This document shows positions 1 to 29,738 of a stretch of DNA of 64,000 nt, in pieces. The notes below the pieces were generated by a model. The model saw only the letters and a program-made list of their open reading frames with translations. It was not told the origin of the DNA and did not search any database. Source of the DNA: Escherichia phage mobillu; sequence record MN850622.1. One strand, written 5' to 3'. The position numbers were made by a program, and so were the translations under genes. Position 1 is the first letter of the stretch. Every line of letters begins with the position of its first letter.

Positions 1-1371
1 GAACGTCCTTCAGATGTGTACAGTTGTTCTCCTAACGGCATGATGTATTATAAAGACCGTGATGGTGTAGTTCCAACTGAAATCACTAAGGTCTTTAATC
101 AACGTAAAGAACATAAAGGTTATATGCTTGCAGCTCAACGTAATGGTGAAATAATTAAAGAGGCATTGCATAATCCTAATCTTTCTGTTGACGAACCATT
201 AGATGTTGATTATCGTTTTGACTTCACTGACGAGATTAAAGAAAAGATTAAAAAGTTGTCTGCTAAATCTCTTAATGAAATGTTGTTTAGAGCTCAACGT
301 ACTGAAGTTGCAGGTATGACTGCACAAATTAACCGTAAATTGCTTATCAACTCACTTTATGGTGCACTTGGCAACGTTTGGTTCCGTTATTATGATTTGC
401 GTAATGCTACTGCAATCACAACATTCGGGCAAATGGCTTTACAGTGGATTGAACGTAAAGTTAATGAATATCTGAATGAAGTTTGTGGTACAGAAGGTGA
501 AGCTTTCGTTCTTTATGGTGATACAGACTCTATTTACGTATCTGCTGATAAAATTATCGATAAGGTTGGTGAATCTAAATTCCGCGATACTAACCATTGG
601 GTAGACTTCTTAGATAAGTTTGCACGTGAACGTATGGAACCAGCTATTGATAGAGGTTTCCGTGAAATGTGTGAATACATGAACAATAAACAACACTTAA
701 TGTTCATGGACCGAGAAGCTATCGCTGGTCCTCCGCTCGGTTCTAAAGGTATTGGTGGATTCTGGACTGGCAAGAAACGTTATGCATTAAACGTGTGGGA
801 TATGGAAGGCACTCGTTACGCCGAGCCTAAACTCAAAATCATGGGTCTAGAGACTCAGAAATCTTCGACCCCTAAAGCAGTACAGAAAGCTCTTAAAGAA
901 TGTATTCGTCGTATGCTTCAAGAAGGTGAAGAATCATTACAAGAATATTTTAAAGAGTTTGAAAAAGAATTCCGTCAATTGAATTATATTAGCATCGCGT
1001 CGGTATCTTCTGCGAATAACATTGCTAAATATGACGTAGGTGGATTCCCGGGTCCTAAATGCCCGTTCCATATTCGTGGAATTCTGACGTATAACCGAGC
1101 TATCAAAGGTAATATTGATGCACCACAAGTTGTAGAAGGTGAAAAAGTATATGTTCTGCCTTTACGTGAAGGAAACCCATTCGGTGATAAATGTATCGCA
1201 TGGCCTTCTGGTACTGAAATCACAGATTTAATTAAAGACGATGTACTTCATTGGATGGACTACACTGTTCTCCTTGAGAAGACATTTATTAAACCGCTTG
1301 AAGGATTCACATCAGCAGCTAAACTCGATTACGAGAAGAAAGCATCTCTGTTCGATATGTTTGATTTTTGA
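1..1371 (+). CDS. 43: DNA polymerase gp43, C-terminal portion (5' end lies outside window)
   Basis: Family-B polymerase motifs KLLINSLYGALGN (motif B) and YGDTDS (motif C); frame open to position 1; ends ...LFDMFDF as in T4/RB69-type gp43. Confidence 0.95.
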   Translation, partial: ERPSDVYSCSPNGMMYYKDRDGVVPTEITKVFNQRKEHKGYMLAAQRNGEIIKEALHNPNLSVDEPLDVDYRFDFTDEIKEKIKKLSAKSLNEMLFRAQRTEVAGMTAQINRKLLINSLYGALGNVWFRYYDLRNATAITTFGQMALQWIERKVNEYLNEVCGTEGEAFVLYGDTDSIYVSADKIIDKVGESKFRDTNHWVDFLDKFARERMEPAIDRGFREMCEYMNNKQHLMFMDREAIAGPPLGSKGIGGFWTGKKRYALNVWDMEGTRYAEPKLKIMGLETQKSSTPKAVQKALKECIRRMLQEGEESLQEYFKEFEKEFRQLNYISIASVSSANNIAKYDVGGFPGPKCPFHIRGILTYNRAIKGNIDAPQVVEGEKVYVLPLREGNPFGDKCIAWPSGTEITDLIKDDVLHWMDYTVLLEKTFIKPLEGFTSAAKLDYEKKASLFDMFDF

Positions 1372-1411
1372 TATAATGCCAAGGACGGCCAACTAATTAA
1401 ATGAGAGAAAT

Positions 1412-2047
1412 ATGAAAACTACACCAATCACTATCGCTATTGACGCAATCGTAAAACAAGCTTCATCTCTTGCCACTATGGCTAAAGTAATTAGTCAAAA
1501 CCCTGCTCGGTATAATGCTATTCTTGAAACTCTTCGTCGCCCTGGACTGAGTAATTATGAAAGTCGTGTAATTATTACAGGTGTTGGTAAGAACGCTAAT
1601 ATCGCAACTAAAGCTTCCGAGACTTTTGCTTCACTAGGTATTCCTAGCATGTATTTGAACACTGGGCATTATTCTCATGGTGACGCAGGATTTATTGCAC
1701 CTAATGATGTATTAGTTCACATCAGCCGTTCTGGTAAGACTGAAGAAATGATAGGTGTTGCTAAACATCTTCGTATGATTCGTCCTCAGGTTAAACAGAT
1801 TCTGTTACATTGTAACCCTGACATTCCACAAGAATACGAAGCCCTTTTTGATTACTCTTTCTGTACAGGCATCGCGGTAGAGGTTGATGAGAATTCTCTG
1901 GCTCCGACCATGTCCACTACATTGTTGTTAGCGCTTATCGATACGTTTGCTATCAACCTTTCGTCTGAACGTGGATTTACCTCTAATGATTTCCTTAAGT
2001 TCCATCCAGGCGGTGCACTAGGTGCCATGTTACGAGGCGAACAATGA
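1412..2047 (+). CDS. SIS-domain sugar-phosphate isomerase (arabinose-5-phosphate isomerase KdsD/GutQ-like, SIS domain only)
   Basis: SIS signatures VIITGVGKNANIATKASETFASLG and HISRSGKTEE; 211 aa; sits in the T4 imm slot between 43 and 42. Confidence 0.6.
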   Translation: MKTTPITIAIDAIVKQASSLATMAKVISQNPARYNAILETLRRPGLSNYESRVIITGVGKNANIATKASETFASLGIPSMYLNTGHYSHGDAGFIAPNDVLVHISRSGKTEEMIGVAKHLRMIRPQVKQILLHCNPDIPQEYEALFDYSFCTGIAVEVDENSLAPTMSTTLLLALIDTFAINLSSERGFTSNDFLKFHPGGALGAMLRGEQ

Positions 2048-2187
2048 AAGCAATAACAATAGGACTTTTACTATTGATGCTTGTCATGACTATCTACTGG
2101 AGCTTAACGGCTCCGGTAATGATTCCAACACTTGTAATTGGATGGATTATGATTGGTCTACAGGCAAAGTATGAATGCTTTAACTAG
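2044..2187 (+). CDS. small hydrophobic protein (47 aa, two predicted TM segments)
   Basis: ATGA overlap with upstream stop (translational coupling); strongly hydrophobic; not in ORF track (<60 aa). Confidence 0.3.
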   Translation: MKAITIGLLLLMLVMTIYWSLTAPVMIPTLVIGWIMIGLQAKYECFN

Positions 2188-2228
2188 AATAGTGTACAAT
2201 ACTCCTACTTACCAATGAGGACTTCAAC

Positions 2229-3914
2229 ATGAAAAAAGCTGTTATTCTTGGTGCTGGATTGGCAACTCGTTTGTATCCAATAACGCATCATATTCCTAAG
2301 GTGCTTGTTAACTATAAACAAGACACTATTCTGAGCAATTTGTATACAATTTATTCTGACCTTGGCGCAGATGAAATTATTGTAGTAGTTCATTCAAAAT
2401 TTGCTGAAACTGTTCGAGCTTATTGTGAGCAAGAAGGGTTCAATGTGACTATTCGTACAGTTGATGAAGCGTATGGTTCTGCTTATGCTCTTGCTAAATT
2501 ACACAAAGATTTAGACGGCCATAATGTAATTGTTAACTGGTGTGATATTATTCCCGATTTTGGTTCATGGTCTTGGAATGTTAACGCAATCTATGTTAAG
2601 GGTGACGAATGTCGATATAATTTCGACGGTGAAAATATCACTAACGTAGGTTCAACAGGTGGTAATGTTGTAGGAATTTATCAGTTCAAAGACTGGGAAT
2701 TCTATATGGGTTCTACTGATGAGGAAATTCATGAATACTGCAAAGGACGTGATTTCGTAGAATTCCTTTACGGCAGCGCATTCAATAAATCAGAGCTTAT
2801 GAATATAATTGATTTAGGTGATATGCCTAAACTTGAAAAGGCTCATGAAGTTCGTGAACTTAATCGTAGTTTTAATGCAGTTGAAATTGGTGAAGAAACT
2901 GTAACTAAATTCGCATTAACCGAACAGGGACGAGCTCTTCAGAAAGATGAGATTTCGTGGTATTTGAAAGTGAAATCAGATTCAGTTCCTCAGTTAGTTT
3001 CTGTTAATGAAAATAACTTTGAAATGGAACGCATTAAAGGTAAGCCGGCATTTGAATATATTAAATCAAAATCAAGTCTTGCTCGTCCACAAATTATTGA
3101 TGCAATTTTAGATGCACTGAAATTCAGCACAGACACTTATTTTGTAAGTCCTGAAACTGTTCGTCGTGATTTCACTAAAGAATTCTATACGAAAGTTATT
3201 GATCGTTGTGAAAGCATTCAACCATTGATTGATTCATTTGGTAAAATCACACATGTGAACTACACTAAGATTGGACGTCTGAAGCCAATGCTGAAACAAG
3301 CTTTAGAACACCTTATTCGTTATCATAACCGTTCTCAGGGACAGTACTCTGTTATTCATGGTGACCCGAACTTCAGTAATACTATGATTACTGATAACGG
3401 CGAAGTCAAGTTTATCGACCCTCGTGGATATTTTGGCGAAACCAAGATTTACGGGCCAAAATTGTATGATGAAGCTAAAGTGCTTTATGCTGTTTCAGGT
3501 TATGATGAATTCAATGCTAATCCGACCTGGGGACAGTTTACTATTGATGAAACAACTTGTAATGTGACTATTAACATCAATCCATTAGTTTACAAATATG
3601 GAAAGATGAGTTCGTTTAACGAGTATCATCATTTGGCTGTAGCAATTATCTGGATTGCATTAGGTGGTTATTTCAAGAATAATCCACTTAAAGCGGTAGC
3701 CGCATATTATAAAGGTATGGAACTTCTGACTAAGCAATTACGTAACATGGGCCGTGTACTTCAAGACGGCTCTATTAGTTATGACGTAGCAGAACCTGTA
3801 ACGGCTACTCTGATTACAAAAAATCCTGGTAAATGGGTACTAACTGATAAAGAAACTGGTGTTTCCTATCGTCCAATCGGTGGCGATATCACTCATCAAT
3901 GGGAACGAATCTAA
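2229..3914 (+). CDS. bifunctional sugar-phosphate nucleotidyltransferase / phosphotransferase (APH or choline-kinase-like kinase domain)
   Basis: N-terminus MKKAVILGAGLATRLYPIT has the GxGxRL motif of sugar-1-P nucleotidyltransferases; C-terminal HGDPNFSNTMI plus IDPRG resemble the Brenner motif and DxG of APH/choline-kinase fold. Confidence 0.6.
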   Translation: MKKAVILGAGLATRLYPITHHIPKVLVNYKQDTILSNLYTIYSDLGADEIIVVVHSKFAETVRAYCEQEGFNVTIRTVDEAYGSAYALAKLHKDLDGHNVIVNWCDIIPDFGSWSWNVNAIYVKGDECRYNFDGENITNVGSTGGNVVGIYQFKDWEFYMGSTDEEIHEYCKGRDFVEFLYGSAFNKSELMNIIDLGDMPKLEKAHEVRELNRSFNAVEIGEETVTKFALTEQGRALQKDEISWYLKVKSDSVPQLVSVNENNFEMERIKGKPAFEYIKSKSSLARPQIIDAILDALKFSTDTYFVSPETVRRDFTKEFYTKVIDRCESIQPLIDSFGKITHVNYTKIGRLKPMLKQALEHLIRYHNRSQGQYSVIHGDPNFSNTMITDNGEVKFIDPRGYFGETKIYGPKLYDEAKVLYAVSGYDEFNANPTWGQFTIDETTCNVTININPLVYKYGKMSSFNEYHHLAVAIIWIALGGYFKNNPLKAVAAYYKGMELLTKQLRNMGRVLQDGSISYDVAEPVTATLITKNPGKWVLTDKETGVSYRPIGGDITHQWERI

Positions 3915-4300
3915 TGCACCGTGTAGAAAACATGCTTAATCTTTGTTTTGATGTCGATGATTGTATAACAGAGTGGAATAACAATCGTGATTACGTGAAC
4001 TTCAAACCAGACGTCGAAATGGTGTCTGCCATTAATGCCCTGTATGATGCAGGGCATACCATAACGCTTTACACTGCTCGCGGTATGAAGTCAGTAGGTC
4101 CTGGTCGTATAGCAATTGACATTCTCCCAAGTCTGATTCAGAACTTGGCAAACATTGGCTTGAAGTACCATAATTTGCTAACACATAAACCAGTATATGA
4201 TTGGATTATCGACGACAAAGCTATGCGTCCTGACGAATTCAAAGCTCTTATGAATAAAGGCGAATTCGAAACATTTAAATCATATAAACCAAATCTATAA
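3914..4300 (+). CDS. HAD-superfamily-like small phosphatase
   Basis: N-terminal FDVDDCIT (DxD-type motif I) and C-terminal WIIDDKA (motif IV-like); TAATG overlap with upstream gene; alternative in-frame start at 3899. Confidence 0.45.
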   Translation: MHRVENMLNLCFDVDDCITEWNNNRDYVNFKPDVEMVSAINALYDAGHTITLYTARGMKSVGPGRIAIDILPSLIQNLANIGLKYHNLLTHKPVYDWIIDDKAMRPDEFKALMNKGEFETFKSYKPNL

Positions 4301-4357
4301 TAATTTAAGTAAGACCTGCAAAAACCATCGCATCAATTAACGTGAGATGCAAAAAAA

Positions 4358-5518
4358 ATGAATACTTTTAAAATCGGAACGAATTTTGATTTAGCTCTTC
4401 TTGATAAAATCGTAGAGCTCAATAAAACTTATCCTAATAGCTTGATAAACGAAGTATACGGCTCTACAAGAGAAATGGCTTTTGTAGCAGCCAGACCTGA
4501 TTTTAGGCTTCCTGACGTTGACAAAAAGATGTTAGAAGATTACGTTAAACGTTGTAACGAATTAGGTATTTGCTTTAACTATACACTCAACACGATAAAT
4601 CCTGGTTCAAAAAGAGAACTAGTTGAGTGGAAGAAGAAAGCTATTCAGGATTATGTTCAGTATCTTTGGTCAATAGGCGTATGGCGTATTACTATCGCTA
4701 ACCCTGTTGTTATGGAAATTGTTCGTGAAGTCAATAAAGACATTGAGATTGAAGTTTCAACAATTCTACATGTCGATGCTGTAACTCAAATCAAATACTT
4801 GCATGACCAGTATAATATCAAAAAGGTCTGCTGTGGAATTCATAAGAACCGTTCAGTTTCTTTCCTGAAGCGTGCAGCAGAGTTTTGCAATAAGAACAAT
4901 ATAATATTTGAAGTTCTTGTAAATGAGTTCTGTTCTAATGCTGGTAAAGGGTATACAACACATTGTAGCTATCGTGACTCTTGCTATATTTTCCATAGTA
5001 CTGATGTTACAGCTGATGATGCTAAATCCTTAAACGGATATCCTATGCAGCACTGTATTAAAGCTCGTGATACAGACCCATTTAACTGGTTGAGAACTCG
5101 TTTTGTTCGTCCTCAAGATTTGAAACTTTATAATGATATTGGTATCACTCAATTCAAAGTTTCAGGACGTACAGGTAGCACAGACTACATTTTGAAAGTT
5201 CTTGAAGCATACGCTTCTGAAAAGTTTGAAGGTAATTTGTTAGAACTGTGGAAGCCTTTAGAGACTATTTTCACTCTTGAAAATGAGACCGAGTTTTCAC
5301 ATACGGTAAATATTGAAACCTCTTTGTTAGATGGCTTTTTAGAAAAAAGGTGGTTCAGACATCCAGATTTCGATTGTGCTAATGAAATCTGCGGGACGAC
5401 GTGTACATATTGTGAAAGATATTATAAACGTCAGTTATCTAAAAATGGGTTATCAGAAAATTCTATATCTATTATTGATATAACTAACTCTGATGACGCT
5501 TTGAGGTACCCAGAATGA
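4358..5518 (+). CDS. hypothetical protein, possible peptidase-U32-like fold
   Basis: 386-aa ORF with RBS; Cys-containing segment EFCSNAGKGYTTHCSYRDSC loosely resembles the U32 family signature; assignment tentative. Confidence 0.35.
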   Translation: MNTFKIGTNFDLALLDKIVELNKTYPNSLINEVYGSTREMAFVAARPDFRLPDVDKKMLEDYVKRCNELGICFNYTLNTINPGSKRELVEWKKKAIQDYVQYLWSIGVWRITIANPVVMEIVREVNKDIEIEVSTILHVDAVTQIKYLHDQYNIKKVCCGIHKNRSVSFLKRAAEFCNKNNIIFEVLVNEFCSNAGKGYTTHCSYRDSCYIFHSTDVTADDAKSLNGYPMQHCIKARDTDPFNWLRTRFVRPQDLKLYNDIGITQFKVSGRTGSTDYILKVLEAYASEKFEGNLLELWKPLETIFTLENETEFSHTVNIETSLLDGFLEKRWFRHPDFDCANEICGTTCTYCERYYKRQLSKNGLSENSISIIDITNSDDALRYPE

Positions 5519-5754
5519 TTTCTAGAAAAACTTTTAACCACCAACTTAATGAAGAGATTTTGACTATGAAAATTAACAGCAACGAACAAATTCTTAAAAA
5601 GGCCCTTATGGGCCTGTTTGAAACTAAAGCGGCTAAAGTGATTAAAGGACCTGTTCAATTGGAATACTACGCTGATGCATTTCTTCATAGTGTTCTTGGA
5701 AGTATCGATGCTGAAGCTTTACGTTATATCAACATTGTCAAGAAATTCAAATAA
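5515..5754 (+). CDS. hypothetical protein (79 aa)
   Basis: ATGA overlap with upstream gene; no recognisable motif. Confidence 0.45.
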   Translation: MISRKTFNHQLNEEILTMKINSNEQILKKALMGLFETKAAKVIKGPVQLEYYADAFLHSVLGSIDAEALRYINIVKKFK

Positions 5755-5777
5755 GCTTTACGAATTGAGTATATAAT
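5753..5777 (+). promoter_or_regulatory. middle-type promoter candidate (MotA-box-like aGCTTTA plus TATAAT)
   Basis: aaGCTTTA at 5753-5760, about 11 bp spacer, TATAAT at 5772-5777, upstream of gene 42. Confidence 0.4.
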
Positions 5778-5796
5778 AAATTGTATTGAGGTAAAC

Positions 5797-6513
5797 ATGG
5801 GAAAACATAACACAATGAAATATATCAAAGCCGCAGATTTTCAAACCGCATTTAAAGCAGTCAATCGTGAAATTTTAGAAAACCCGGAATTCGTAACTGA
5901 TTCTCGTATTGGACGTTGTAATGAAATTGGGTCTATGACAGTAGTTGTTGACACTCCATCATCATTCAAAATGACCGACCCACGTATTAACCGCATCTCT
6001 TATGAATACGCCGAAGATTTCTGGAAGTTTATGATTTCTGGTGGTACCAACGCAGAAGAAGCGTTTAAGGCATATCCTAATGTCGCTAAATTTATTTCTA
6101 AACCAAAATCAGATGTTTTGCCGGCGAACTTCAACACTTTCTACGGTCCTCGCATTGCGGCCCAATTACCAGCTCTTCTAAAAGAACTTAAAGAGAAGCC
6201 TAACTCCCGAAGAGTTGTGTTCCAAATTCTAGAAAGTTCTGATCAGGCTTTGCTTGATTCAGACGAAACGCTTGAATATCCATGTACTGACTCAGTGACT
6301 TATTATATTCGTGATGGTAAGCTTTATACCCACTGTCATATGCGTTCTCAGAACTGTGCTGTTGTTATGCAGTTGGATTTTTATCTCCAAGGAAAATTAC
6401 TTCATTATATCGCTAACGAATGTGGTGTAGAAGTTGGTGATTATACTCATACCATGGTAAGTGCCCATGTGTTTGAACGTGATTTTGATTATGTTAAAGG
6501 ATTCCTTGACTAA
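5797..6513 (+). CDS. 42: dCMP hydroxymethylase (thymidylate-synthase fold)
   Basis: Matches remembered T4 gp42 blocks: PNSRRVVFQI, YPCTDSVTYYIRDGKLYTHCHMRSQN, VSAHVFERDF; position between uvsX and 43 as in T4. Confidence 0.85.
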   Translation: MGKHNTMKYIKAADFQTAFKAVNREILENPEFVTDSRIGRCNEIGSMTVVVDTPSSFKMTDPRINRISYEYAEDFWKFMISGGTNAEEAFKAYPNVAKFISKPKSDVLPANFNTFYGPRIAAQLPALLKELKEKPNSRRVVFQILESSDQALLDSDETLEYPCTDSVTYYIRDGKLYTHCHMRSQNCAVVMQLDFYLQGKLLHYIANECGVEVGDYTHTMVSAHVFERDFDYVKGFLD

Positions 6514-7412
6514 TGGCTATTTTCCGCGTACCAATCTTGAGTATGCGGTCTTATGAAACTGGACAGTATGCTATCCTTAAGGATGGCAACTTCCAACTTC
6601 ATTTGCACCGTGCTAATCCAGGTGATGTGATTACATATCCACGTAATGCATCTGATATTAAAGAATGCGAACGTCTTTTCCCAGAATTTAAGTTTGTTCC
6701 ATTATGGTATAAAGATAACGCGTATAACACTCGTAAATATTTCTGGTCTGAAAATGAATTTGTGGTTGATTCATTAATTGCTTATTATGATTGTGATTTT
6801 CTAATCACAGATATCACCGGATATGACGGTGCTTTTGATGTAGAATTCAATTTCAATATCACTGCAGACCCTAATAAACCACGTTTTTATATTGACGAAT
6901 TCTTAAAAACCGACATGTTGTCGGTTAATCGTTCACTTCAAACTACTGTGTTGAACGAACGTCAAAAAGAAGTGCTGGTTAACGCAGGTGCAGATGGTAA
7001 TAAGATTATCGTAACGCAGAAAGTTATACGTCCTTCCATCATGCAGCGTCTTGTAGGTGATTTGGCTCCTATTCATCTAGATGGTATTTTTCATCCATTT
7101 CGAATTAGCGACCCGTGCTATCGTTTTGAACAAGTGGTTGAATGTGCAATTCAATTAGGCCAACCGCTTTATATAACCGATCCAAATAATAGCTTCGACA
7201 GAAATAAGTATCCTGAAGAAGCGCTGATTCGAATTTTTAAACCAACTAAAACTGAGTACTATCAAATTCTTAAAGGACGTCCGAAAATTCAATATTTCGA
7301 AAATCCTGAAGAAGTATTCCATCCAGGTCTTGGTGAGTTCATCTACTTTAATGCTTTAATTTCTTCGCCGTATAATATACCTAAATATGAAGATGTCGTA
7401 ATCGAGGAATAA
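6513..7412 (+). CDS. hypothetical protein (299 aa) occupying the T4 beta-glucosyltransferase slot
   Basis: TAATG overlap with gene 42; no recognisable motif; positional replacement of beta-gt. Confidence 0.5.
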   Translation: MAIFRVPILSMRSYETGQYAILKDGNFQLHLHRANPGDVITYPRNASDIKECERLFPEFKFVPLWYKDNAYNTRKYFWSENEFVVDSLIAYYDCDFLITDITGYDGAFDVEFNFNITADPNKPRFYIDEFLKTDMLSVNRSLQTTVLNERQKEVLVNAGADGNKIIVTQKVIRPSIMQRLVGDLAPIHLDGIFHPFRISDPCYRFEQVVECAIQLGQPLYITDPNNSFDRNKYPEEALIRIFKPTKTEYYQILKGRPKIQYFENPEEVFHPGLGEFIYFNALISSPYNIPKYEDVVIEE

Positions 7413-7413
7413 A

Positions 7414-7962
7414 ATGGCTAAAATTATTTTAGTAGATGGCCCAGATAATGCTGGTAAAACAACTTTCATTAATGACATAATGGAAATTAGTGAAAGATAT
7501 GTAAAGATTGATTTCCCTAAACGAACAGTTGATGGGCGTTTCGATGTTAAGTCTCGAAATGAAGTTGGCTGCTTCGAAACGATGTTGAATTATTTAGACC
7601 CTACTAAGATTTATCTGTTAGACCGTGGATATATTAGTAACTGGGTTTATGGACGTATTCGACAAGATGCGGACTCGGTTCTTGACGTTTATGAACAGGA
7701 TTATGTTCGTCTTTGCCAAAACCATGATGTGTTCACAATTATTTTAACACGTAACGAAATGACTGAAAGTTTTGAAGACGACCTTATTACTTTGTCTTCA
7801 TTCGGTTTTAATACAGTCATTTCACATTTTGAAGAGTTTGCAATTCATAACAAAATCCAAACGTATCAATTACTTAATCATGATGGTGCTAACAAAGTTA
7901 TAGGATTTAATGCAAGCGAACGTAATTATTTGATTACAGAAATTATCAAATGGGCTCGTTAA
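7414..7962 (+). CDS. P-loop kinase, thymidylate-kinase-like (dNMP/nucleoside kinase fold)
   Basis: P-loop IILVDGPDNAGKTTF and DR-motif LLDRGYISNWVYG resemble Tmk family. Confidence 0.5.
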   Translation: MAKIILVDGPDNAGKTTFINDIMEISERYVKIDFPKRTVDGRFDVKSRNEVGCFETMLNYLDPTKIYLLDRGYISNWVYGRIRQDADSVLDVYEQDYVRLCQNHDVFTIILTRNEMTESFEDDLITLSSFGFNTVISHFEEFAIHNKIQTYQLLNHDGANKVIGFNASERNYLITEIIKWAR

Positions 7963-7982
7963 GAGCCATTTAAAGTTTTAAA

Positions 7983-8008
7983 TGCTGTATAACCCTTAGT
8001 ATATAATC
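7983..8008 (+). promoter_or_regulatory. middle promoter candidate for uvsX
   Basis: MotA-box-like aaaTGCTGTA at 7981-7989, 13 bp spacer, TATAAT at 8003-8008. Confidence 0.45.
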
Positions 8009-8060
8009 ATCTTATCTTTTAAACATGAGTAAAATATAATGATGCCTATGGAAAAATACA

Positions 8061-9233
8061 ATGTCTGATTTAAAATCTCGTTTGATTAAAGCTTCTACTT
8101 CTAAAATGACTGCAGACTTGACTAAGTCTAAGCTGTTTAATAATCGCGATGAAGTCCCTACTCGTATTCCAATGTTGAATATTGCACTAGGTGGTGCACT
8201 GAATGCCGGGTTGCAATCAGGCTTGACTATTTTTGCTGCTCCTTCTAAACACTTTAAAACGTTGTTTGGACTGACCATGGTTGCAGCATATATGAAGAAA
8301 TATAAAGATGCAATCTGTTTGTTTTATGACTCAGAATTCGGTGCTTCGGAATCTTATTTTCGTTCAATGGGTGTTGATTTAGACCGTGTAGTTCATACTC
8401 CGATTCAATCGGTCGAACAACTTAAGGTTGATATGACTAATCAGCTTGACGCGATTGAACGCGGTGATAAAGTTATTATCTTTATTGACTCGATTGGTAA
8501 TACTGCATCTAAGAAAGAAACCGAAGATGCATTGAACGAGAAAGTTGTAGGTGATATGTCTCGTGCTAAGGCACTTAAATCTCTGTTCCGCATTGTGACC
8601 CCGTATCTGACTATTAAAGATATTCCGTGTGTTGCAATTAACCATACAGCAATGGAAATCGGCGGATTGTATCCTAAAGAGATTATGGGCGGTGGTACAG
8701 GTATTCTTTATTCTGCCAACACGGTATTTTTTATCTCTAAACGTCAGGTTAAAGAAGGTACAGAATTGACCGGTTATGACTTCACGTTGAAAGCAGAAAA
8801 ATCTCGCACAGTTAAAGAGAAATCTACTTTCCCGATCACGGTTAATTTTGATGGCGGTATTGACCCATTCAGTGGCTTGTTAGAAATGGCAACTGAAATT
8901 GGTTTTGTAGTTAAGCCTAAAGCTGGTTGGTATGCTCGTGAATTCCTTGACGAAGAAACAGGTGAAATGATTCGTGAAGAAAAATCATGGCGTGCTAAAG
9001 CTACTGATTGTGTAGAATTCTGGGGACCTTTGTTTAAACACAAACCTTTCCGAGATGCAATTGAAACTAAATATAAACTAGGTGCTATCTCTTCTATTAA
9101 AGAAGTTGATGACGCTGTTAACGACCTTATTAATTGCAAAGCAACAACTAAAGTTCCGGTTAAAACTTCTGATGCTCCATCTGCAGCAGATATAGAAAAC
9201 GACCTTGACGAAATGGAAGATTTCGATGAATAA
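8061..9233 (+). CDS. uvsX: UvsX recombinase (RecA-like)
   Basis: Near-identical to remembered T4 UvsX (MSDLKSRLIKASTSK..., Walker A region, C-terminal acidic tail). Confidence 0.97.
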   Translation: MSDLKSRLIKASTSKMTADLTKSKLFNNRDEVPTRIPMLNIALGGALNAGLQSGLTIFAAPSKHFKTLFGLTMVAAYMKKYKDAICLFYDSEFGASESYFRSMGVDLDRVVHTPIQSVEQLKVDMTNQLDAIERGDKVIIFIDSIGNTASKKETEDALNEKVVGDMSRAKALKSLFRIVTPYLTIKDIPCVAINHTAMEIGGLYPKEIMGGGTGILYSANTVFFISKRQVKEGTELTGYDFTLKAEKSRTVKEKSTFPITVNFDGGIDPFSGLLEMATEIGFVVKPKAGWYAREFLDEETGEMIREEKSWRAKATDCVEFWGPLFKHKPFRDAIETKYKLGAISSIKEVDDAVNDLINCKATTKVPVKTSDAPSAADIENDLDEMEDFDE

Positions 9234-9567
9234 TCTCGATGATTTAAATCTAGAAATCGTTGATGAATCCCCTTCTTCGGAAGGGGAAGACATTCGCAAA
9301 GAACGAGTGTTTAATGAATCTCTTAAAATTGTCCGTTCAGCAATGGAAAATGTCATTCAAGAGATTCTGATTACACTTGAAGACGGTTCCCATCATATAG
9401 TCTATATTACAAAACTAGACTGGGTTGATGGTAAAATCGTAATGGACTTTGCAGTTCTTGACCAGGACAGAAAAGCAGAACTTGCACCGCACGTTGAAAA
9501 ATGTGTTACAATGCAAGTACAACAAGCTTTTAATGAACGAACCAAGAAAAAATTTAAATTCTTTTAA
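9226..9567 (+). CDS. 40: gp40 head vertex assembly protein (positional homolog)
   Basis: ATGAATAA overlap with uvsX stop; position between uvsX and 41 as in T4; ORF-track start 9205 is TTG, first ATG is 9226. Confidence 0.6.
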   Translation: MNNLDDLNLEIVDESPSSEGEDIRKERVFNESLKIVRSAMENVIQEILITLEDGSHHIVYITKLDWVDGKIVMDFAVLDQDRKAELAPHVEKCVTMQVQQAFNERTKKKFKFF

Positions 9568-11078: not shown

Positions 11079-11107
11079 GTACTTACACCAACCAAGAGGA
11101 AAACATT

Positions 11108-11482
11108 ATGAATATGTCTCAAGCAATTTTTACTGTAATCACCGAAAACACAACTGTTGAAGTAGTTTCTCCACTGGCAACCTACGTTATTCTTGCTCCT
11201 AAAACTATTGTATCTCGTATGGAAAACATGGGCAAACGTATCGTACAAATAGTTGGAGCCGGAAATCAAAAACTTGATTATCTACGAACCATCAAAGCTT
11301 ATGAACATTTCCAACTCGAAAAAGGTTCTCCTATCCAGGTAGAACTCGTAAATGGTGATATCGTTCGAGCAATGTTCCATCATTTCTATGCATTGAATGA
11401 CCCATCTAAAGCGGTTCGTTTAATTGCATACGACGCAAACCAAAACGAAATCAACGCAGATGTATCTAAATTACGTTTTTAA
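11108..11482 (+). CDS. hypothetical protein (124 aa)
   Basis: ORF with RBS aagaggaaaacatt; no recognisable motif. Confidence 0.55.
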   Translation: MNMSQAIFTVITENTTVEVVSPLATYVILAPKTIVSRMENMGKRIVQIVGAGNQKLDYLRTIKAYEHFQLEKGSPIQVELVNGDIVRAMFHHFYALNDPSKAVRLIAYDANQNEINADVSKLRF

Positions 11483-11537
11483 GTTTACTTCTCCAGTAGT
11501 TGTGTTATTATAGATCTATCAACTACTGGAGAACAAA

Positions 11538-11855
11538 ATGAAAACCATCGATTGTAAAGCAGAATTTAAGATTTTTTATCACGGTTCAAGTAGTTCAGCT
11601 AACATCGAAAACATGCTTTGTCCTCCTGAAGAAACAGGAGTTCTGTCTGAAACTGGACGTAAGAAAAACTTGGATCGTGTATTCTTTACTGAAGATATCG
11701 GTTTAGCAAAGATTTATGCAGGACGAGCAGCACGCTCTTATGGAGGTGAACCACGTCTCTATCGAGTAATTTCTCCGGTAGATGTAGTTCAAATGAATGA
11801 TACTAAAGGCGCTACAGTTTATCACGCTGAATGGGCATTTTGCGAGGAAATATGA
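11538..11855 (+). CDS. hypothetical protein (105 aa) with FYHGSSS motif
   Basis: ORF with RBS; a YHGS-type motif is reminiscent of H-Y-E class ADP-ribosyltransferases, but the protein is very small. Confidence 0.5.
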   Translation: MKTIDCKAEFKIFYHGSSSSANIENMLCPPEETGVLSETGRKKNLDRVFFTEDIGLAKIYAGRAARSYGGEPRLYRVISPVDVVQMNDTKGATVYHAEWAFCEEI

Positions 11856-12040
11856 GCAAATTAACTAAAGTTACTTTTATCGGTTGGTTTAAAAGCGGTG
11901 AGATGTTCACTAAAGATATCATGTTATCAGGTGATCGCGAAGAAATCGAGTGGGTTACGGTACAACTTGCTGAAGTGAACAAAGCATTAGTTAAAGCATT
12001 TGTTAATGACGAGAAAGTTTTCGAAGCAGATTTTCGATAA
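11852..12040 (+). CDS. dmd: Dmd antitoxin (discriminator of mRNA degradation; inhibitor of host RnlA/LsoA toxins)
   Basis: Matches remembered T4 Dmd: VTFIGWFKSGEMFTKDI...QLAEVNKALVKAFVNDEKVFEADFR; ATGA-coupled start. Confidence 0.85.
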   Translation: MSKLTKVTFIGWFKSGEMFTKDIMLSGDREEIEWVTVQLAEVNKALVKAFVNDEKVFEADFR

Positions 12041-12052
12041 TTTTAAATAGCT

Positions 12053-12082
12053 GTTTACAAGCCCCACATACTGTGTTACTAT
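12053..12082 (+). promoter_or_regulatory. T4-type early promoter
   Basis: GTTTAC 12053-12058, 18 bp spacer, TACTAT 12077-12082. Confidence 0.55.
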
Positions 12083-12110
12083 CTTTCTATCAACTACAGA
12101 GGAAATTGAA

Positions 12111-12479
12111 ATGAAAAAATTAATCGCTTTAGCAATGGTATTTGGATTAACCGGATGTGGTGCCCATGGCTTTATCCCTAATAATGTTGGCCAACTGATT
12201 TATAATCCGAATGTTAAACAGTACGACCAACCTAAAGTTGAAGTGGAAGACCCGGTTACTGTAGGTAATCGAATGATTCAAGCTGATGCCCATGCTCAAC
12301 GTTATCGTGACTCTGATACTGTAGCATTGTCAAAAGAACAGCGCGTTAAAGAACATTGCTTACAGGCTACTGAAATCGCATTCATTCGCTATGTTGAAAC
12401 AACCGGTAAAGAGCCTACCCAGAAACAAATCGCGAATAACTACGTCCAGTGTATTGAACGTTTAAACAAATTTAATTAA
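12111..12479 (+). CDS. predicted lipoprotein (122 aa)
   Basis: Signal peptide MKKLIALAMVFGLTGC with lipobox L-T-G-C. Confidence 0.6.
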   Translation: MKKLIALAMVFGLTGCGAHGFIPNNVGQLIYNPNVKQYDQPKVEVEDPVTVGNRMIQADAHAQRYRDSDTVALSKEQRVKEHCLQATEIAFIRYVETTGKEPTQKQIANNYVQCIERLNKFN

Positions 12480-12540: not shown

Positions 12541-12789
12541 ATGGAATTATTCGTAGCTAGTTCAGTAGCAGTTTTAATCGCAGGTATTGGTTCAATCATC
12601 ATTTACATGTTGCCTTGGGTAATCGCACTTATTCGTGGCACAAAAAGCACAACAGCAATCTTCTTTGTATCTTTACTCTTTAACTGGACGATGGTTGGTT
12701 GGATTGGAACTTTAATTTGGTCTATCATTGCCGAAAAGAAATCGGCTCAGCAGCCTCAACAAGTAATTATTATTCGCGAAAAAGAATAA
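12541..12789 (+). CDS. small inner-membrane protein, superinfection-immunity (Imm) family-like
   Basis: Two hydrophobic segments; LFNWTMVGWIGTLIWSI resembles the superinfection-immunity family motif; 82 aa, similar in size to T4 Imm. Confidence 0.45.
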   Translation: MELFVASSVAVLIAGIGSIIIYMLPWVIALIRGTKSTTAIFFVSLLFNWTMVGWIGTLIWSIIAEKKSAQQPQQVIIIREKE

Positions 12790-15828: not shown

Positions 15829-16350
15829 ATGGCACACTTTAACGAATGTTCACAACTTATTTCTGGTGTTGATAAAGCAGAAGAAGCTTATTTTAATGCT
15901 CTGATTCACGAAGATAAAGACCCACTGCAGGTAATGCTTGATATGCAGAAATCTTTACAGGTTCGTCTGGCAAATGACAAGCCTGAACATAACAAACATC
16001 CTGATGAATTGGCCACTGCTGGCGATGTTGTTGATTGGCTGCGTAATCAGAAAGATTATATTGATGATGAATTTCGTGAACTGCTGACTTCACTTGGTGG
16101 TATGTCCAACGGTGAAAAAGCTGCCAGCTCTGTGTGGAAGCCATGGAAAGCACAACATGCTGAATATCGTAATCGTCGTATTGATGAACTGTCTCCTGAA
16201 GACCAGCTCGAAATTAAATTCGAAATGATTGATATTCTGCACTTCGTTCTGAACATGTTCCAAGGTCTGGGTCTTTCTGCCGAAGAAATCTTTAAACTGT
16301 ATTATCTGAAGAATGCTGAAAACTTTGCTCGTCAAGACCGAGGTTATTAA
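15829..16350 (+). CDS. 56: dCTP pyrophosphatase (dCTPase/dUTPase)
   Basis: Position between 61 and soc and size as T4 gp56; start at ATG 15829 after aaaggaaaaataATG (track start 15814 is TTG). Confidence 0.7.
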   Translation: MAHFNECSQLISGVDKAEEAYFNALIHEDKDPLQVMLDMQKSLQVRLANDKPEHNKHPDELATAGDVVDWLRNQKDYIDDEFRELLTSLGGMSNGEKAASSVWKPWKAQHAEYRNRRIDELSPEDQLEIKFEMIDILHFVLNMFQGLGLSAEEIFKLYYLKNAENFARQDRGY

Positions 16351-24582: not shown

Positions 24583-25107
24583 ATGTTAGTTTACCGCGTA
24601 GAACGTAGTTTTTGTACTCAACGTGAATCATTACCAGGAATTGCTATCGAAGACGGTAAAGCCGTCAGAATTTGGGAAACCTCTTGGAATAAAGAACCTC
24701 GCTCGCCGTACGGTTGGTCGGGCACCGACAACTCTGAAGAAACATGGGAGTTCCTTGATAAACACGGAATACTCTCAGGTAACTTCTACCATCACGGCGA
24801 CAACTATAATGTCCCTAATCGTCCTACAGTAAATGAAGACAAACTCCTTGAACAAAATATCTTAAGATACCATAGAATTGAGTACACATTTGAATTGAGT
24901 GAAGATTGGGCTCAAGGGTTCTATTTTGGATTTGAAAGTGTTGACGCGGTTTATGCATGGTTTGATGACCAGGTGGATGTTGAACTCTTGAAAGCTAAAG
25001 GATACTACATCGCGGTCTATGAAGCACCTGATTTCATCCTCGGAAGTTGTCAATTAATGTTCAGACGTTCATTGGCAGAACAAGTTGATTTTATTTTGCT
25101 AAAATGA
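24583..25107 (+). CDS. hypothetical protein (174 aa)
   Basis: RBS accagaggagaataat; no motif. Confidence 0.55.
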   Translation: MLVYRVERSFCTQRESLPGIAIEDGKAVRIWETSWNKEPRSPYGWSGTDNSEETWEFLDKHGILSGNFYHHGDNYNVPNRPTVNEDKLLEQNILRYHRIEYTFELSEDWAQGFYFGFESVDAVYAWFDDQVDVELLKAKGYYIAVYEAPDFILGSCQLMFRRSLAEQVDFILLK

Positions 25108-25136
25108 TGTACAACAACTATGGTCTATGATACTAT
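25107..25136 (+). promoter_or_regulatory. T4-type early promoter
   Basis: ATGTAC 25107-25112, 18 bp spacer, TACTAT 25131-25136. Confidence 0.45.
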
Positions 25137-25164
25137 AGACCTATCAAAACAAGAGGAGAATATT

Positions 25165-25392
25165 ATGAAACGTCAAATCATTAAAAACGTAACTACTGAT
25201 TCAAACATCGATGAGTTTGAAGATGTTCTGTTTAATCCTGATTTAGTTGTTGTACAGAAAAACTGGACTGAATTTTTATGCTACACTGAAGTGGTTTACG
25301 TTTACGAAAAACTCGGCGATGAAATGCCTATCTATGGTATCTTCCGTGAAATCACTGAAAATGGTACAACTTATTGGAAGGAAACTTACTAA
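25165..25392 (+). CDS. hypothetical protein (75 aa)
   Basis: Start after RBS caagaggagaatatt; track ORF start 25120 lies in the promoter. Confidence 0.5.
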
Positions 25393-25805
25393 TGGCTAAT
25401 AAATTCCGCGTTAACTCATGGTACCAATTTAAAGATAAACGTGCCCAAGAAGAGTTTATTAAAGACCACACTGATAATGGGATTTATGCACGACGTCTTG
25501 GCATGGAACCATTTAAAGTATTAGATGTTGACCATCTTGGTCGTCCTACTAAAATTGTGACATCTACTGGCACGGTTGGATACGCAACAGGCGGTGATAT
25601 CCTTGATGAAAACTTTATCTGGCTCTCCACGAATGAAGCAGAATTCTTTGACGAAGTTGGAAATCCATATCAAGCGTCCGAAGAGCAAGATTCTGGTGAA
25701 CTTGATGAATTGTCTGAATTTCCGGTGATGACGATTACTATCGAAAATAACGACCAGGCATGGTCTTTGTATCAAATGTTGAAAGCTCACTTTAAGGAAC
25801 AATAA
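25392..25805 (+). CDS. hypothetical acidic protein (137 aa)
   Basis: TAATG coupling to upstream gene. Confidence 0.5.
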
Positions 25806-26472: not shown

Positions 26473-28290
26473 ATGATTAAAAATGAAATTAAGGTATTGT
26501 CAGATGTAGAACATATTAAGAAACGTAGTGGTATGTATATTGGTTCTTCGGCTAAAGAAGCCCACGAGCGTTTTTTGTTTGGTAAATATCAACAAGTTGA
26601 ATATGTTCCTGGTCTGGTTAAATTAATCGATGAGATTATTGACAACTCGGTTGATGAAGCTATTCGTACATCATTTAAGTTTGCAAATAAAATTGATGTG
26701 CAAATTAAAAATAATCAAGTTTCGGTGGAAGATAACGGACGTGGTATTCCTCAAGGTTTAGTTACCGACCAAACAGGTGAACAAATTCCTGGACCTGTAG
26801 CAGCCTGGACTATTCCAAAGGCCGGTGGTAACTTTGGTGATGACTCTGAACGCAAGACTGGTGGTATGAACGGCGTCGGGAGTAGTTTAACTAATATCTT
26901 CTCTACGTTGTTTACAGGCATCACGTCAGATGGCGAAAACGAAATCACTGTTAACTGTTCAAACGGAATGGAAAACAAATCATGGTCTTCTAAGAAATCT
27001 AAAGGTAAAGGCACTAAAGTAATCTTCACTCCTGATTTCTCTTCATTTGAAGAGCATAATTTATCTCAAATTTATTTAGATATTACTTTAGACCGACTTC
27101 AAACATTGGCAGTCGTTTATCCTGATATCAAGTTCACATTTAATGGTAAAAAGGTTGATGGTAATTTTAAACGATTTGCTAAACAATTTGGCGAAGATAA
27201 CATCATTCAAGAAAATGATAAAGTCTCTATAGCATTCACAACATCACCAGATGGCTTCCGTCATTTAACTTATGTGAATAACATCCATACTAAAAATGGT
27301 GGTCATCATGTTGAATGTGTAATGGATGATATCTGTGAACATCTTTTGCCTGGTATTAAAAAGAAATATAAGGGTATTGAAGTCACTAAAGCTCGTGTTA
27401 AAGAATGTCTCACAATGTTGATGTTTATTAGAGACATGAGCAACATGCGTTTTGATTCTCAGACTAAAGAACGTTTAACGTCAACGTATGGTGATATTCG
27501 TAATCATATCCAATTAGATGCTAAGAAAATTGCTCAGGCACTTCTTAAAAACGAAGCCTTGATTATGCCTATTGTTGAAGCAGCATTAGCTCGTAAATTG
27601 GCAGCAGAAAAGGCTGCAGAAACTAAAGCAGCTAAAAAGGCAACTAAAGCTAAGGTTCATAAGCATATTAAAGCTAACCAATGTGGTAAAGATGCAGATA
27701 CGACATTGTTTTTAACAGAAGGTGATTCGGCAATTGGTTATCTCATTGATGTTCGTGACCGTGAACTACACGGCGGATTCCCATTACGTGGTAAGGTGAT
27801 GAATAGCTGGGGTATGTCATATGCTGATATGATGAAGAACAAAGAGCTCTTTGATATCTGTGCTATCACGGGTCTTATTCTTGGTGAAAAGGCAGAGAAT
27901 ACGAACTATCGTAATATTGCAATTATGACCGATGCCGATCATGACGGTCTTGGAAGTATTTATCCGGCTTTGCTTGCTTTCTTTAGTAATTGGCCTGAAT
28001 TGTTTGAACAAGGACGTATTCGCTTTGTTAAAACGCCTGTAATTATTGCACAAATTGGCAAAACTCAAAAATGGTTTTATACTGTAGCTGAGTATGAAGA
28101 AGTTAAAGATACACTGCCTAAGCATAGTATTAGATACATCAAGGGATTAGGCTCCCTTGAAAAGTCAGAATATCGTGAAATGATTCAGAACCCTGTGTAC
28201 GACGTAGTTAAACTTCCTGAAAATTGGAAAGAACTCTTTGAAATGTTGATGGGTGATGATTCAGAACTTCGTAAAGAATGGATGTCCTAA
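26473..28290 (+). CDS. 39: DNA topoisomerase II large subunit, gp39 with gp60-equivalent C-terminus fused (GyrB-like)
   Basis: GHKL ATPase N-terminus and Toprim region; 605 aa, i.e. the T4 39 + 60 products as a single uninterrupted ORF. Confidence 0.92.
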   Translation: MIKNEIKVLSDVEHIKKRSGMYIGSSAKEAHERFLFGKYQQVEYVPGLVKLIDEIIDNSVDEAIRTSFKFANKIDVQIKNNQVSVEDNGRGIPQGLVTDQTGEQIPGPVAAWTIPKAGGNFGDDSERKTGGMNGVGSSLTNIFSTLFTGITSDGENEITVNCSNGMENKSWSSKKSKGKGTKVIFTPDFSSFEEHNLSQIYLDITLDRLQTLAVVYPDIKFTFNGKKVDGNFKRFAKQFGEDNIIQENDKVSIAFTTSPDGFRHLTYVNNIHTKNGGHHVECVMDDICEHLLPGIKKKYKGIEVTKARVKECLTMLMFIRDMSNMRFDSQTKERLTSTYGDIRNHIQLDAKKIAQALLKNEALIMPIVEAALARKLAAEKAAETKAAKKATKAKVHKHIKANQCGKDADTTLFLTEGDSAIGYLIDVRDRELHGGFPLRGKVMNSWGMSYADMMKNKELFDICAITGLILGEKAENTNYRNIAIMTDADHDGLGSIYPALLAFFSNWPELFEQGRIRFVKTPVIIAQIGKTQKWFYTVAEYEEVKDTLPKHSIRYIKGLGSLEKSEYREMIQNPVYDVVKLPENWKELFEMLMGDDSELRKEWMS

Positions 28291-28316
28291 GCTCCTTCGG
28301 GAGCTTCATTTTAATT
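28289..28316 (+). terminator. terminator-like hairpin
   Basis: AAGCTCC-TTCG-GGAGCTT followed by cattttaatttt. Confidence 0.45.
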
Positions 28317-28332
28317 TTAATAAGGCTTAATT

Positions 28333-29433: not shown

Positions 29434-29449
29434 ATCCTGAATAGCCTGA

Positions 29450-29500
29450 GGCACTATTACACATAAGATGATAGATTATATGGTCTTTAGTAATAGTGCC
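29450..29500 (+). repeat. perfect 11-bp inverted repeat flanking a 29-bp AT-rich spacer
   Basis: GGCACTATTAC (29450-29460) and GTAATAGTGCC (29490-29500). Confidence 0.7.
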
Positions 29501-29525
29501 CTAGGAATCTACTGAAGAGAATATT

Positions 29526-29726: not shown

Positions 29727-29738
29727 TGAGAGAAAAAT

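Follow-up and report, generated by a model that had tools for sequence, protein, structure and literature searches.

A probable arabinosyl-5-hydroxycytosine gene cluster of Escherichia phage mobillu and its U32-family protein, a candidate oxygen-independent hydroxylase of a DNA precursor

Introduction

Why does a T4-like phage carry a set of sugar-phosphate genes, and among them a gene for a U32-family protein, directly behind its DNA polymerase gene? The question is raised by Escherichia phage mobillu, of which a stretch of 64,000 nucleotides (sequence record MN850622.1; hereafter the window) was analysed. Between the C-terminal part of the DNA polymerase (16–1371) and a thymidylate-synthase-family gene (5797–6513, plus strand), the window holds an island of six open reading frames (ORFs) at 1412–5754. 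An earlier reading of the same DNA, made without database searches (the original prediction), described the island as a sugar-nucleotide pathway for the hypermodification of 5-hydroxymethylcytosine (hmC); the thymidylate-synthase-family gene, which lay outside its span, is part of the system.

The island is the already published uridine diphosphate (UDP)-arabinofuranose/5-hydroxycytosine (5hoC) system of RB69-like phages, a system that places arabinose on every cytosine in the DNA of these coliphages and shields them from restriction enzymes and CRISPR, and the sugar-nucleotide part is not new. Protein identity makes it very probable that in the window it forms the arabinosyl-5hoC DNA cluster of Mosigviruses (RB69, Bas46, HY126-type). 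The one new, testable lead of the analysis is the U32 protein, for which we infer, from family membership and gene neighbourhood, a prephenate-dependent hydroxylase activity.

Identity of the island

The window belongs to Mosigvirus. Its nucleotide identity to RB69 and Bas46 (ChristianSchoenbein) is 97.8–98.5%, the proteins of the cluster are 96–100% identical to those of both phages (96–99.5% for RB69), and the genes stand in the same order, which bears out the link to RB69 drawn in the original prediction. With the first 9.3 kb of the window, 150 phage records matched across 80% or more of that length, Mosigviruses best of all. A publication by Mahler (2025) is said to be among those describing the route from ribulose-5-phosphate to nucleoside diphosphate (NDP)-arabinose. 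The assignment of these genes to such a route, offered in the original prediction as its own idea, stands, but it is not novel: the Bas46 annotation names the same UDP-arabinose module, and Thomas et al. 2018 had proposed this module for UDP-arabinose synthesis, also recognising RB69 ORF053c and ORF052c as one gene of 561 amino acids (PMC6024577).

The ORF listing reproduces all six plus-strand ORFs, at 1412–2047 (211 amino acids), 2044–2187 (47), 2229–3914 (561), 3899–4300 (133), 4358–5518 (386) and 5515–5754 (79). They follow one another closely, at 2044 and 5515 with overlaps of the ATGA type, and are not chance ORFs, because their homologues occur in hundreds of phage records. The counterparts of 2229–3914 and of the glycosyltransferase gene at 6513–7412 are split in the RB69 record (L065), at 28094–29780 and 24597–25497. 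Both genes are intact single ORFs here, in support of the published explanation of the RB69 splits as sequencing errors.

As the original prediction held, the interval between genes 43 and 42 contains imm in T4, where imm.1 and imm are found. In the window an imm homologue lies at 12541–12786 (plus strand; 98.8% identical to RB69p036), near dmd and the 61.x genes, and therefore other genes have taken over the T4 imm slot, which is not itself lost. A promoter and terminator scan of 1200–8200 was uninformative, as promoter-like sites were fewer than in shuffled sequence, and a transposon-mutagenesis preprint on LC53 and Bas46 does not mention the island genes.

Sugar-nucleotide genes and the order of the steps

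The first gene (1412–2047, plus strand) encodes a homologue of RB69 gp55 (97% identical to RB69p055), a predicted SIS-domain D-arabinose-5-phosphate isomerase of the KdsD/GutQ type without a CBS pair. It matched the SIS model of Pfam (E 2.8e-9), the KpsF/GutQ and KdsD models of NCBIfam (1e-31 and 4e-30) and the arabinose-5-phosphate isomerases 3ETN, 5UQI and 2XHZ in the PDB (E 1e-25 to 1e-18); for RB69, the function was assigned computationally (PMC13326640). The start of the next gene (2044–2187, plus strand; RB69 gp54; phrog_3610), encoding a hydrophobic peptide of 47 amino acids, overlaps the SIS stop codon (ATGA). The peptide adjoins the SIS gene in 13 T4-like loci, whereas of the five T4-like loci without SIS or its neighbour, four have no such peptide. 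It may associate with the membrane as a partner of the isomerase.

The 561-residue protein (2229–3914, plus strand; RB69 ORF53_52c; 99% identical to Bas46) is an AfhE-like bifunctional nucleotidyltransferase-kinase. Its N-terminus matched Pfam NTP_transferase above the Pfam cut-off (residues 3–99, E 8.8e-10), carries the motif GAGLATRL at residue 8, and matched NCBIfam models of sugar-1-phosphate nucleotidylyltransferases, including MurU, and PDB 1JYK. The kinase part is recognised by weak, sub-threshold matches to APH, fructosamine kinase and EcKL at residues 308–409 and by the motifs HGDPNFSN at 377 and FIDPRG at 395 (HGDxxxxN and xIDxxG). The fourth gene (3899–4300, plus strand; RB69 gp51) encodes an AfhF-like phosphatase of the HAD superfamily, which matched the capsule-phosphatase subfamily TIGR01689 of NCBIfam at E 4e-13, below the curated cut-off of that model. 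The DxD motif FDVDDCIT (residues 17–24), T59, K97 and DD105–106 are present, and the protein is near-identical to a solved structure, PDB 9IQW (E 8e-88). As 9IQW aligns from residue 5 and the 99% identity to RB69p051 begins at position 3914, the true start may be at 3914, equivalent to that of RB69p051, instead of 3899. The profile searches thus recovered the SIS, nucleotidyltransferase, kinase-like and HAD assignments and none pointed to unrelated families, so that the isomerase, the fused nucleotidyltransferase-kinase and the phosphatase of the original prediction are all upheld.

In HY126, as described by He et al. 2026 and relayed by Lee et al., AfhE is an arabinofuranose (Araf)-5-phosphate 1-kinase and UDP-Araf pyrophosphorylase, and AfhF is a Mg-dependent phosphatase acting on the 1,5-bisphosphate; the order relayed there runs from Araf-5-phosphate through Araf-1,5-bisphosphate (kinase) and Araf-1-phosphate (phosphatase) to UDP-Araf (PMC13326640). 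By analogy, the SIS isomerase of the window would convert host ribulose-5-phosphate into D-arabinofuranose-5-phosphate, the kinase domain of the fusion would add a 1-phosphate, the HAD phosphatase would strip the 5-phosphate, and the nucleotidyltransferase domain would join Araf-1-phosphate with uridine triphosphate to UDP-arabinofuranose. A route through the 1,5-bisphosphate, in which arabinose is never free, would explain why the furanose ring is retained.

The RB69 and HY126 literature and the identity of the proteins thus agree with the original prediction in that the pathway starts from ribulose-5-phosphate, passes through arabinose-5-phosphate and supplies an NDP-arabinose for the hypermodification of cytosine in DNA. 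They do not agree with its order of steps, in which a phosphatase first released free arabinose for an anomeric kinase, given the bisphosphate route relayed for AfhE and AfhF. Some points weigh against the kinase-first order and its transfer to the window: in Table 1 of Lee et al. the phosphatase comes before the kinase (PMC13326640), the kinase-first order rests on He et al. 2026 as relayed by Lee et al., and the individual steps, known from proteins of RB69, HY126 and DLP3, are carried over to the window on 96–99.7% identity.

Acceptor base and its glycosylation

The gene that closes the island downstream (5797–6513, plus strand) had been taken for gene 42, a dCMP hydroxymethylase. Its product is 99.2% identical to RB69p048 (gp48) and only 25% identical to T4 gp42. 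When it is aligned to gp42 and to the ThyA of E. coli, its motif is MRSQNC, with Asn at the position of ThyA Asp169, where gp42 has Asp, and Asp at the position of Asn177; the 18 T4-like loci collected all share MRSQNC, and the PDB chains 9IQC, 9IR2 and 9IQU are near-identical to the protein. According to Lee et al., this pair of exchanges is the signature of 5-hydroxy-dCMP (5hodCMP) synthases; they also found that RB69 gp48 binds flavin and, together with a dNMP kinase, makes 5-hydroxydeoxycytidine (5hodC) in E. coli with 18O incorporated from O2 (PMC13326640). By its sequence, the neighbouring gene is a flavin- and O2-dependent 5hodCMP synthase of the ThyA family and no dCMP hydroxymethylase, and since it carries this signature, the acceptor base would be 5hoC, not hmC.

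For RB69 and related phages, the chemistry of virion DNA leads to the same base. Tandem mass spectrometry (MS/MS) and nuclear magnetic resonance (NMR) identified beta-D-Araf-(1-3)-alpha-D-Araf on 5-hydroxy-deoxycytidine in RB69, with the arabinose ether-linked (PMC13326640), and mono- or di-arabinosyl-5hoC was shown in virion DNA of RB69, NP and Bas46 (PMC13326640, PMC13390438). Arabinosyl-hmC, which the original prediction took as established for RB69, had been reported by Thomas et al. 2018 (PMC6024577), but this hydroxymethyl assignment was erroneous according to a second group (PMC13390438).

Further genes of the window fit into the base branch. Directly behind the ThyA-like gene lies an intact gene for DNA arabinosyltransferase 1 (6513–7412, plus strand; 299 amino acids; phrog_3891; 99.7% identical to Bas46), the counterpart of RB69 gp46:47, which was assigned as a DNA arabinosyltransferase (PMC13326640). 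It is followed by a thymidylate-kinase-like nucleotide kinase (7414–7962, plus strand; RB69 gp45; 182 amino acids; phrog_761) with the P-loop GPDNAGKT, and then by uvsX (8061–9233); a PDB sequence search with the glycosyltransferase and the kinase gave no matches. The homologue of RB69 ORF003c lies apart at 28333–29433 (plus strand; 98.6% identical to RB69p003), between a topoisomerase gene and rIIA, and its role as the second arabinosyltransferase comes from the RB69 studies (PMC6024577, PMC13326640). A homologue of the gp56 dCTPase, which gives dCMP and removes dCTP, is encoded at 15829–16347 (plus strand; 99.4% identical to RB69p028). A canonical td thymidylate synthase gene with the usual Asp169/Asn177 motif QRSVDVFLGLPFN is found at 54456–55313 (plus strand), and thus one phage carries two ThyA-family enzymes of different chemistry. 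After td come two large ORFs of 751 and 395 amino acids (55660–57915 and 57958–59145, plus strand), probably NrdA and NrdB. In this branch the dCTPase would yield dCMP, the adjoining ThyA-like enzyme would hydroxylate it with flavin and O2, kinases and polymerase would bring 5hoC into DNA, and the two glycosyltransferases would then add arabinose.

Against this background, the scheme of the original prediction, with isomerase, phosphatase to free arabinose, anomeric kinase and nucleotidyltransferase and with the sugar placed on hmC made by gene 42, is very unlikely. The domain content is compatible with it, and both the arabinosyl-hmC of Thomas et al. (PMC6024577) and the order in Table 1 of Lee et al. 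(PMC13326640) speak in its favour. It conflicts, however, with the arabinose ether-linked to 5hoC in the NMR and MS/MS data (PMC13326640, PMC13390438), with a neighbouring enzyme of the 5hodCMP synthase type and with the bisphosphate order relayed for HY126 AfhE and AfhF, and free arabinose would leave the furanose form that is found in the DNA.

The U32 protein and its small partner

The fifth gene (4358–5518, plus strand) corresponds to RB69 gp50; RB69p050 is annotated three codons longer, with a start equivalent to 4349. Its product, noted in the original prediction as a possible U32-like protein of 386 amino acids, is indeed a protein of the U32 family, and probably an iron-sulfur (Fe-S) protein: it matched Pfam Peptidase_U32 with 42.2 bits against a gathering cut-off of 22.4, showed a weak NCBIfam match to UbiU, and its AlphaFold2 (AF2) model, with a mean predicted local distance difference test (pLDDT) of 90.5, found its best fold match in PDB 5D88, the only solved U32 protein. 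A PDB sequence search with the protein gave no matches, and its identity to the U32 paralogues of E. coli is about 18%. The phage U32 clade has ten invariant Cys. Of the four Cys that ligate the [4Fe-4S] cluster of UbiU, C169 and C176 align with C203 and C209, and C232 is matched by C233, which follows a conserved YP motif; C209 is invariant across the whole alignment of twelve proteins, to which the E. coli paralogues belong. At the position of the fourth, UbiU C193, the alignment has a gap, where the invariant C192 may substitute. The Glu equivalent to RlhA E161 is conserved in the phage clade, and a second cluster might sit in a CX4CX3CX2C motif at the C-terminus.

The last ORF of the island (5515–5754, plus strand; RB69 gp49; phrog_8601) encodes a helical protein of 79 amino acids, and its start overlaps the U32 stop codon (ATGA). 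The AF2 model has four helices at low confidence (pLDDT 62). All homologues of gp49 are close Mosigvirus copies and were seen only together with U32, so that gp49 is a probable U32 accessory. In Mosigviruses it takes the place that a chorismate mutase occupies beside U32 in other T4-like phages. It was considered as a degenerate chorismate mutase and rejected: there was no match to CM_2, the alignment with phage chorismate mutases in hhalign had a probability of 0.2%, and gp49 coexists with a real chorismate mutase at four loci (L017, L022, L024, L030).

Gene neighbourhoods of U32 homologues

A database search with the U32 protein returned 268 relatives, the top 120 of them at 48–87% identity, and unrelated phages as well as genome bins of strict anaerobes carry homologues at 45–58% identity. 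At five metagenomic loci the neighbourhoods were those of phage replication and nucleotide metabolism, not sugar operons, with dUTPase/MazG, thymidylate-kinase-like, UDG, dCMP deaminase, Pol III alpha, TAGT and other glycosyltransferase genes. According to tblastn, homologues of the window glycosyltransferase and kinase stand directly upstream of U32 at the metagenomic loci, and no ThyA-like gene was found there.

To score the neighbours, 47 IMG/VR loci were searched with locally built hidden Markov models, the metagenomic loci being covered for about 10 kb on each side of U32, and groups were dereplicated at 95% U32 identity. This gave nine T4-like groups and 24 non-T4-like groups, the latter being those with at least 3 kb on both sides of U32. 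All nine T4-like groups have a ThyA homologue, a glycosyltransferase, a kinase and an AfhE-like gene near U32, and seven have a SIS gene. Among the non-T4-like groups, a glycosyltransferase is near U32 in 20, directly upstream, a kinase in 17, an AfhE-like gene in 12 and a SIS gene in eight; a ThyA homologue was found in one (1/24), of the ordinary Asp type without the Asn signature. By these counts, therefore, U32 tracks base-handling genes more closely than arabinose genes. The original prediction had placed the 386-residue protein in the sugar island; it is no part of the sugar route, which does not need it, and its relatives are tied to glycosyltransferase, kinase and prephenate-making genes, not to sugar genes.

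DAHP synthase catalyses the entry step of the shikimate pathway, and chorismate mutase is the enzyme that makes prephenate. In Serratia phage LC53 and Klebsiella phage KLB31, an AroQ chorismate mutase gene overlaps the stop codon of U32 (Pfam CM_2 44.6 and 38.5 bits; cut-off 27), and a chorismate mutase follows U32 in seven of the nine dereplicated T4-like groups. With tblastn this chorismate mutase was found in 54 of 50,697 phage records, all of them Tevenvirinae, where the named neighbours are always ‘peptidase’ (U32) and/or ‘thymidylate synthase’ genes. A prephenate-type gene also stands beside U32, on either side of it, in eight of the 24 non-T4-like groups. On such unrelated phage contigs it is a DAHP synthase-chorismate mutase fusion at L040, L041, L043, L044 and L054, a stand-alone chorismate mutase at L046, L048 and the L051 group, and a DAHP synthase alone at L007 and L029.

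The fusions, with the chorismate mutase at the C-terminus, lie at 8411–9433 (L040), 9–971 (L041), 7302–8357 (L043), 8332–9387 (L044) and 11079–12197 (L054), and no description of such a phage fusion as an auxiliary gene of the shikimate pathway was found in the literature searched. The DAHP_synth_1 neighbours were also considered as KDO-8-P synthases, users of arabinose-5-phosphate; NCBIfam favours DAHP synthase, with 221–237 bits, below the curated cut-offs, against about 60 bits. DAHP synthase flags at T4-like loci were discarded as artefacts, as the model also scores chorismate mutase domains.

Prephenate is the demonstrated oxygen donor of UbiU/V, a role that has been proposed for the whole U32 family, and the RlhA-dependent formation of 5-hydroxycytidine in rRNA requires prephenate and Fe-S clusters. 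The work on UbiU/V and prephenate states that an in vitro assay for U32 hydroxylation is still missing.

Three metagenomic arrangements deserve mention. On a 466-kb, megaphage-sized contig (L003, 9447–11086), U32 directly follows a dCMP deaminase gene, with thymidylate kinase, UDG, MazG-like and radical-SAM/SPASM genes near, an arrangement that hints at hydroxylated uracil rather than cytosine. On anaerobic Firmicute contigs with a dockerin/GH43 neighbour (L004, 10001–17428; also L005 and L067), a phage-type U32 gene is part of a run with an NT5C deoxyribonucleotidase, a PnuC-like transporter, a deoxynucleoside kinase, a radical-SAM/SPASM protein, a second, divergent U32 and a nucleoside deoxyribosyltransferase, which may be a cellular pathway for modified deoxynucleosides. 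At L008 (7777–16179), U32 is flanked by a gp46:47-like glycosyltransferase, a TAGT (TET-associated-type glycosyltransferase, a weak match), a DCD/dUTPase and a UDP-galactopyranose mutase, with no TET or ThyA in view of that interval; the gene content suggests galactofuranosyl-hydroxypyrimidine DNA.

Distribution of the U32 gene

The 221 U32-positive records come from phages of Enterobacterales and Shewanella. Acinetobacter, with 65 records for the ThyA-like gene, has no genus entry in the U32 match summary, and U32 is absent from Acinetobacter phage DLP3 and from the E. coli Dhakavirus dhaeg. In Kanagawavirus, U32 and chorismate mutase behave as one cassette, present in KLB31 and absent from Q7622, in which the ThyA-like gene directly adjoins that of the phosphatase. 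In a scan of one genome per species, phage-type U32 was found only in assemblies of Romboutsia (two), Erysipelotrichales, Lachnospiraceae, another Bacillota, Tannerella, Phocaeicola and a BRC1 bin. On the Romboutsia contigs the order is U32, chorismate mutase and glycosyltransferase, followed on the longer one (L073) by an AfhE-like gene, and on the Erysipelotrichales contig chorismate mutase, kinase and glycosyltransferase come some way after U32.

Function of the U32 protein

From these neighbourhoods and the family to which the protein belongs, the most economical reading, and a somewhat likely one, is that U32 hydroxylates a pyrimidine DNA precursor at C5 with prephenate and without O2, making 5-hydroxy-dC(MP). 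The substrate would probably be dCMP, because kinases and dNTP pyrophosphatases are associated with the gene. With its translationally coupled partner gp49, gp50 would then be, at moderate confidence, the first enzyme to hydroxylate a DNA precursor in dependence on prephenate and independently of O2. The pair would provide a second route to the same 5-hydroxylated base, with prephenate as oxygen donor as in RlhA, TrhP and UbiU/V, and this route would permit phage DNA modification in anoxic hosts. Mosigviruses would in this case carry an aerobic (gp48) and an anaerobic (gp50) enzyme side by side, like TrhO/TrhP for ho5U and UbiIHF/UbiUV for ubiquinone in E. coli, and in many phages of strict anaerobes U32 appears to be the only hydroxylase beside the glycosyltransferase. 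No publication connecting 5hoC with U32 or chorismate mutase genes of phages was found in a search that did not reach He 2026 and Mahler 2025, which may cover the subject.

Several observations weigh against the hydroxylase. Lee et al. list gp50 only as a ‘sugar or heterocycle reductase’ (PMC13326640). The window holds no chorismate mutase or DAHP synthase, so that U32 would rely on the host enzymes PheA and TyrA, and two thirds of the non-T4-like U32 loci have no prephenate gene within 4 kb. With flanks of about 10 kb, a distant hydroxylase gene at the metagenomic loci could be missed. Phages of E. coli and Enterobacter without U32 exist, so the protein is dispensable at least in aerobic laboratory growth, and the host patterns (aerobe or anaerobe) stem from few independent lineages and are supportive only.

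The label given by Lee et al. (PMC13326640) points instead to a redox helper, an Fe-S reductase whose task would be to return the flavin of the ThyA-like hydroxylase to its reduced state or to reduce a sugar or heterocycle intermediate. The ten invariant Cys, including those of the C-terminal CX4CX3CX2C, would suffice for two clusters, and the U32 gene stands beside the gene of a flavoenzyme. Yet gp48 and a dNMP kinase make 5hodC in E. coli without gp50 (PMC13326640), most non-T4-like U32 loci lack a ThyA homologue and so have no flavoenzyme to serve, only half of these loci have arabinose genes, and the repeated linkage with chorismate mutase and DAHP synthase would stay unexplained. We therefore consider a helper role rather improbable.

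It is similarly doubtful that U32 hydroxylates another target, such as cytosines in DNA, dUMP, or host RNA or quinone, or that the chorismate mutase is used otherwise, for example in draining host chorismate. The dCMP deaminase directly before U32 on the megaphage contig and the bacterial locus that ties U32 to deoxynucleoside salvage genes are in keeping with a different target. Against it, U32 repeatedly stands in tight adjacency to a DNA glycosyltransferase and to a kinase of the dNMP type, which speaks for a DNA precursor, and an RNA or quinone target would leave this adjacency unexplained. A collagenase-like peptidase, suggested by the GenBank labels ‘peptidase’, ‘collagenase’ and ‘capsid and scaffold’, is hardly credible, as the family owes its name to history, those E. 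coli members that have been characterised are factors in hydroxylation, and the genomic context is nucleotide metabolism.

Should the prephenate-dependent hydroxylase prove real, phages with arabinosyl-5hoC would have an anaerobic route to 5-hydroxy-dC alongside the ThyA-like enzyme that uses O2 and flavin. This would explain how these phages of the gut maintain full DNA modification when oxygen is absent, and relatives without U32, such as Dhakavirus, would be predicted to depend on oxygen. Many uncultured phages of anaerobes would be likely carriers of glycosylated hydroxypyrimidine DNA, a wide and unrecognised class, and the U32 field would gain a small soluble substrate for the missing in vitro assay.

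Comparison with known systems

Compared with the clusters of RB69 (gp45–gp55), Bas46 and HY126 (Afh), the window has the same genes in the same order and differs at strain level only, apart from the two ORFs that sequencing errors split in the RB69 record. With the hmC system of T4 (gp42, gp56, gp1, alpha- and beta-glucosyltransferase) it shares the slot near DNA polymerase and uvsX, and the logic by which a ThyA-family enzyme makes a modified dCMP before replication and a sugar is added on the DNA. The base would differ, being 5-hydroxymethylcytosine from a folate enzyme in T4 and 5-hydroxycytosine from an enzyme that uses flavin and O2 in the window. RB69 has no homologues of the T4 glucosyltransferases (PMC13326640). 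The donor in T4 is host UDP-glucose, whereas the UDP-Araf of the window would be made by the phage.

The sugar branch resembles two well-established pathways, that of ADP-heptose (GmhA/HldE/GmhB) and that of AmgK and MurU. With the former it has in common a SIS isomerase, an anomeric kinase leading to a bisphosphate, a HAD phosphatase removing the distal phosphate and a nucleotidyltransferase, the kinase and transferase being fused; a GmhB-like fold match was reported for the phosphatase (PMC13326640). However, HldE combines ribokinase-like and cytidylyltransferase-like domains, whereas the fusion of the window combines a protein-kinase/APH-like with an RmlA/MurU-like domain, the substrate here is a pentose and the nucleotide UDP, so that the branch works alike without being a member of that pathway. 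An APH-fold anomeric sugar kinase and a minimal uridylyltransferase of the MurU type are what it shares with AmgK–MurU, and MurU was the top fold hit for the N-terminal domain in Lee et al. (PMC13326640). In the window, by contrast, the two domains are fused and the substrate is already phosphorylated at C5, so that an extra phosphatase step is needed.

The U32 protein is comparable with RlhA (ho5C2501), TrhP (ho5U34) and UbiU/UbiV, with which it shares the U32 domain and the conserved Cys and Glu positions, and from which hydroxylation at C5 of a pyrimidine would be expected. It differs from these E. coli factors in one cluster Cys that is apparently relocated (C192), in the extra CX4CX3CX2C and in its putative DNA-precursor target. 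TrhP and UbiUV are paired with the O2-dependent TrhO and UbiIHF, as gp50 would be with gp48.

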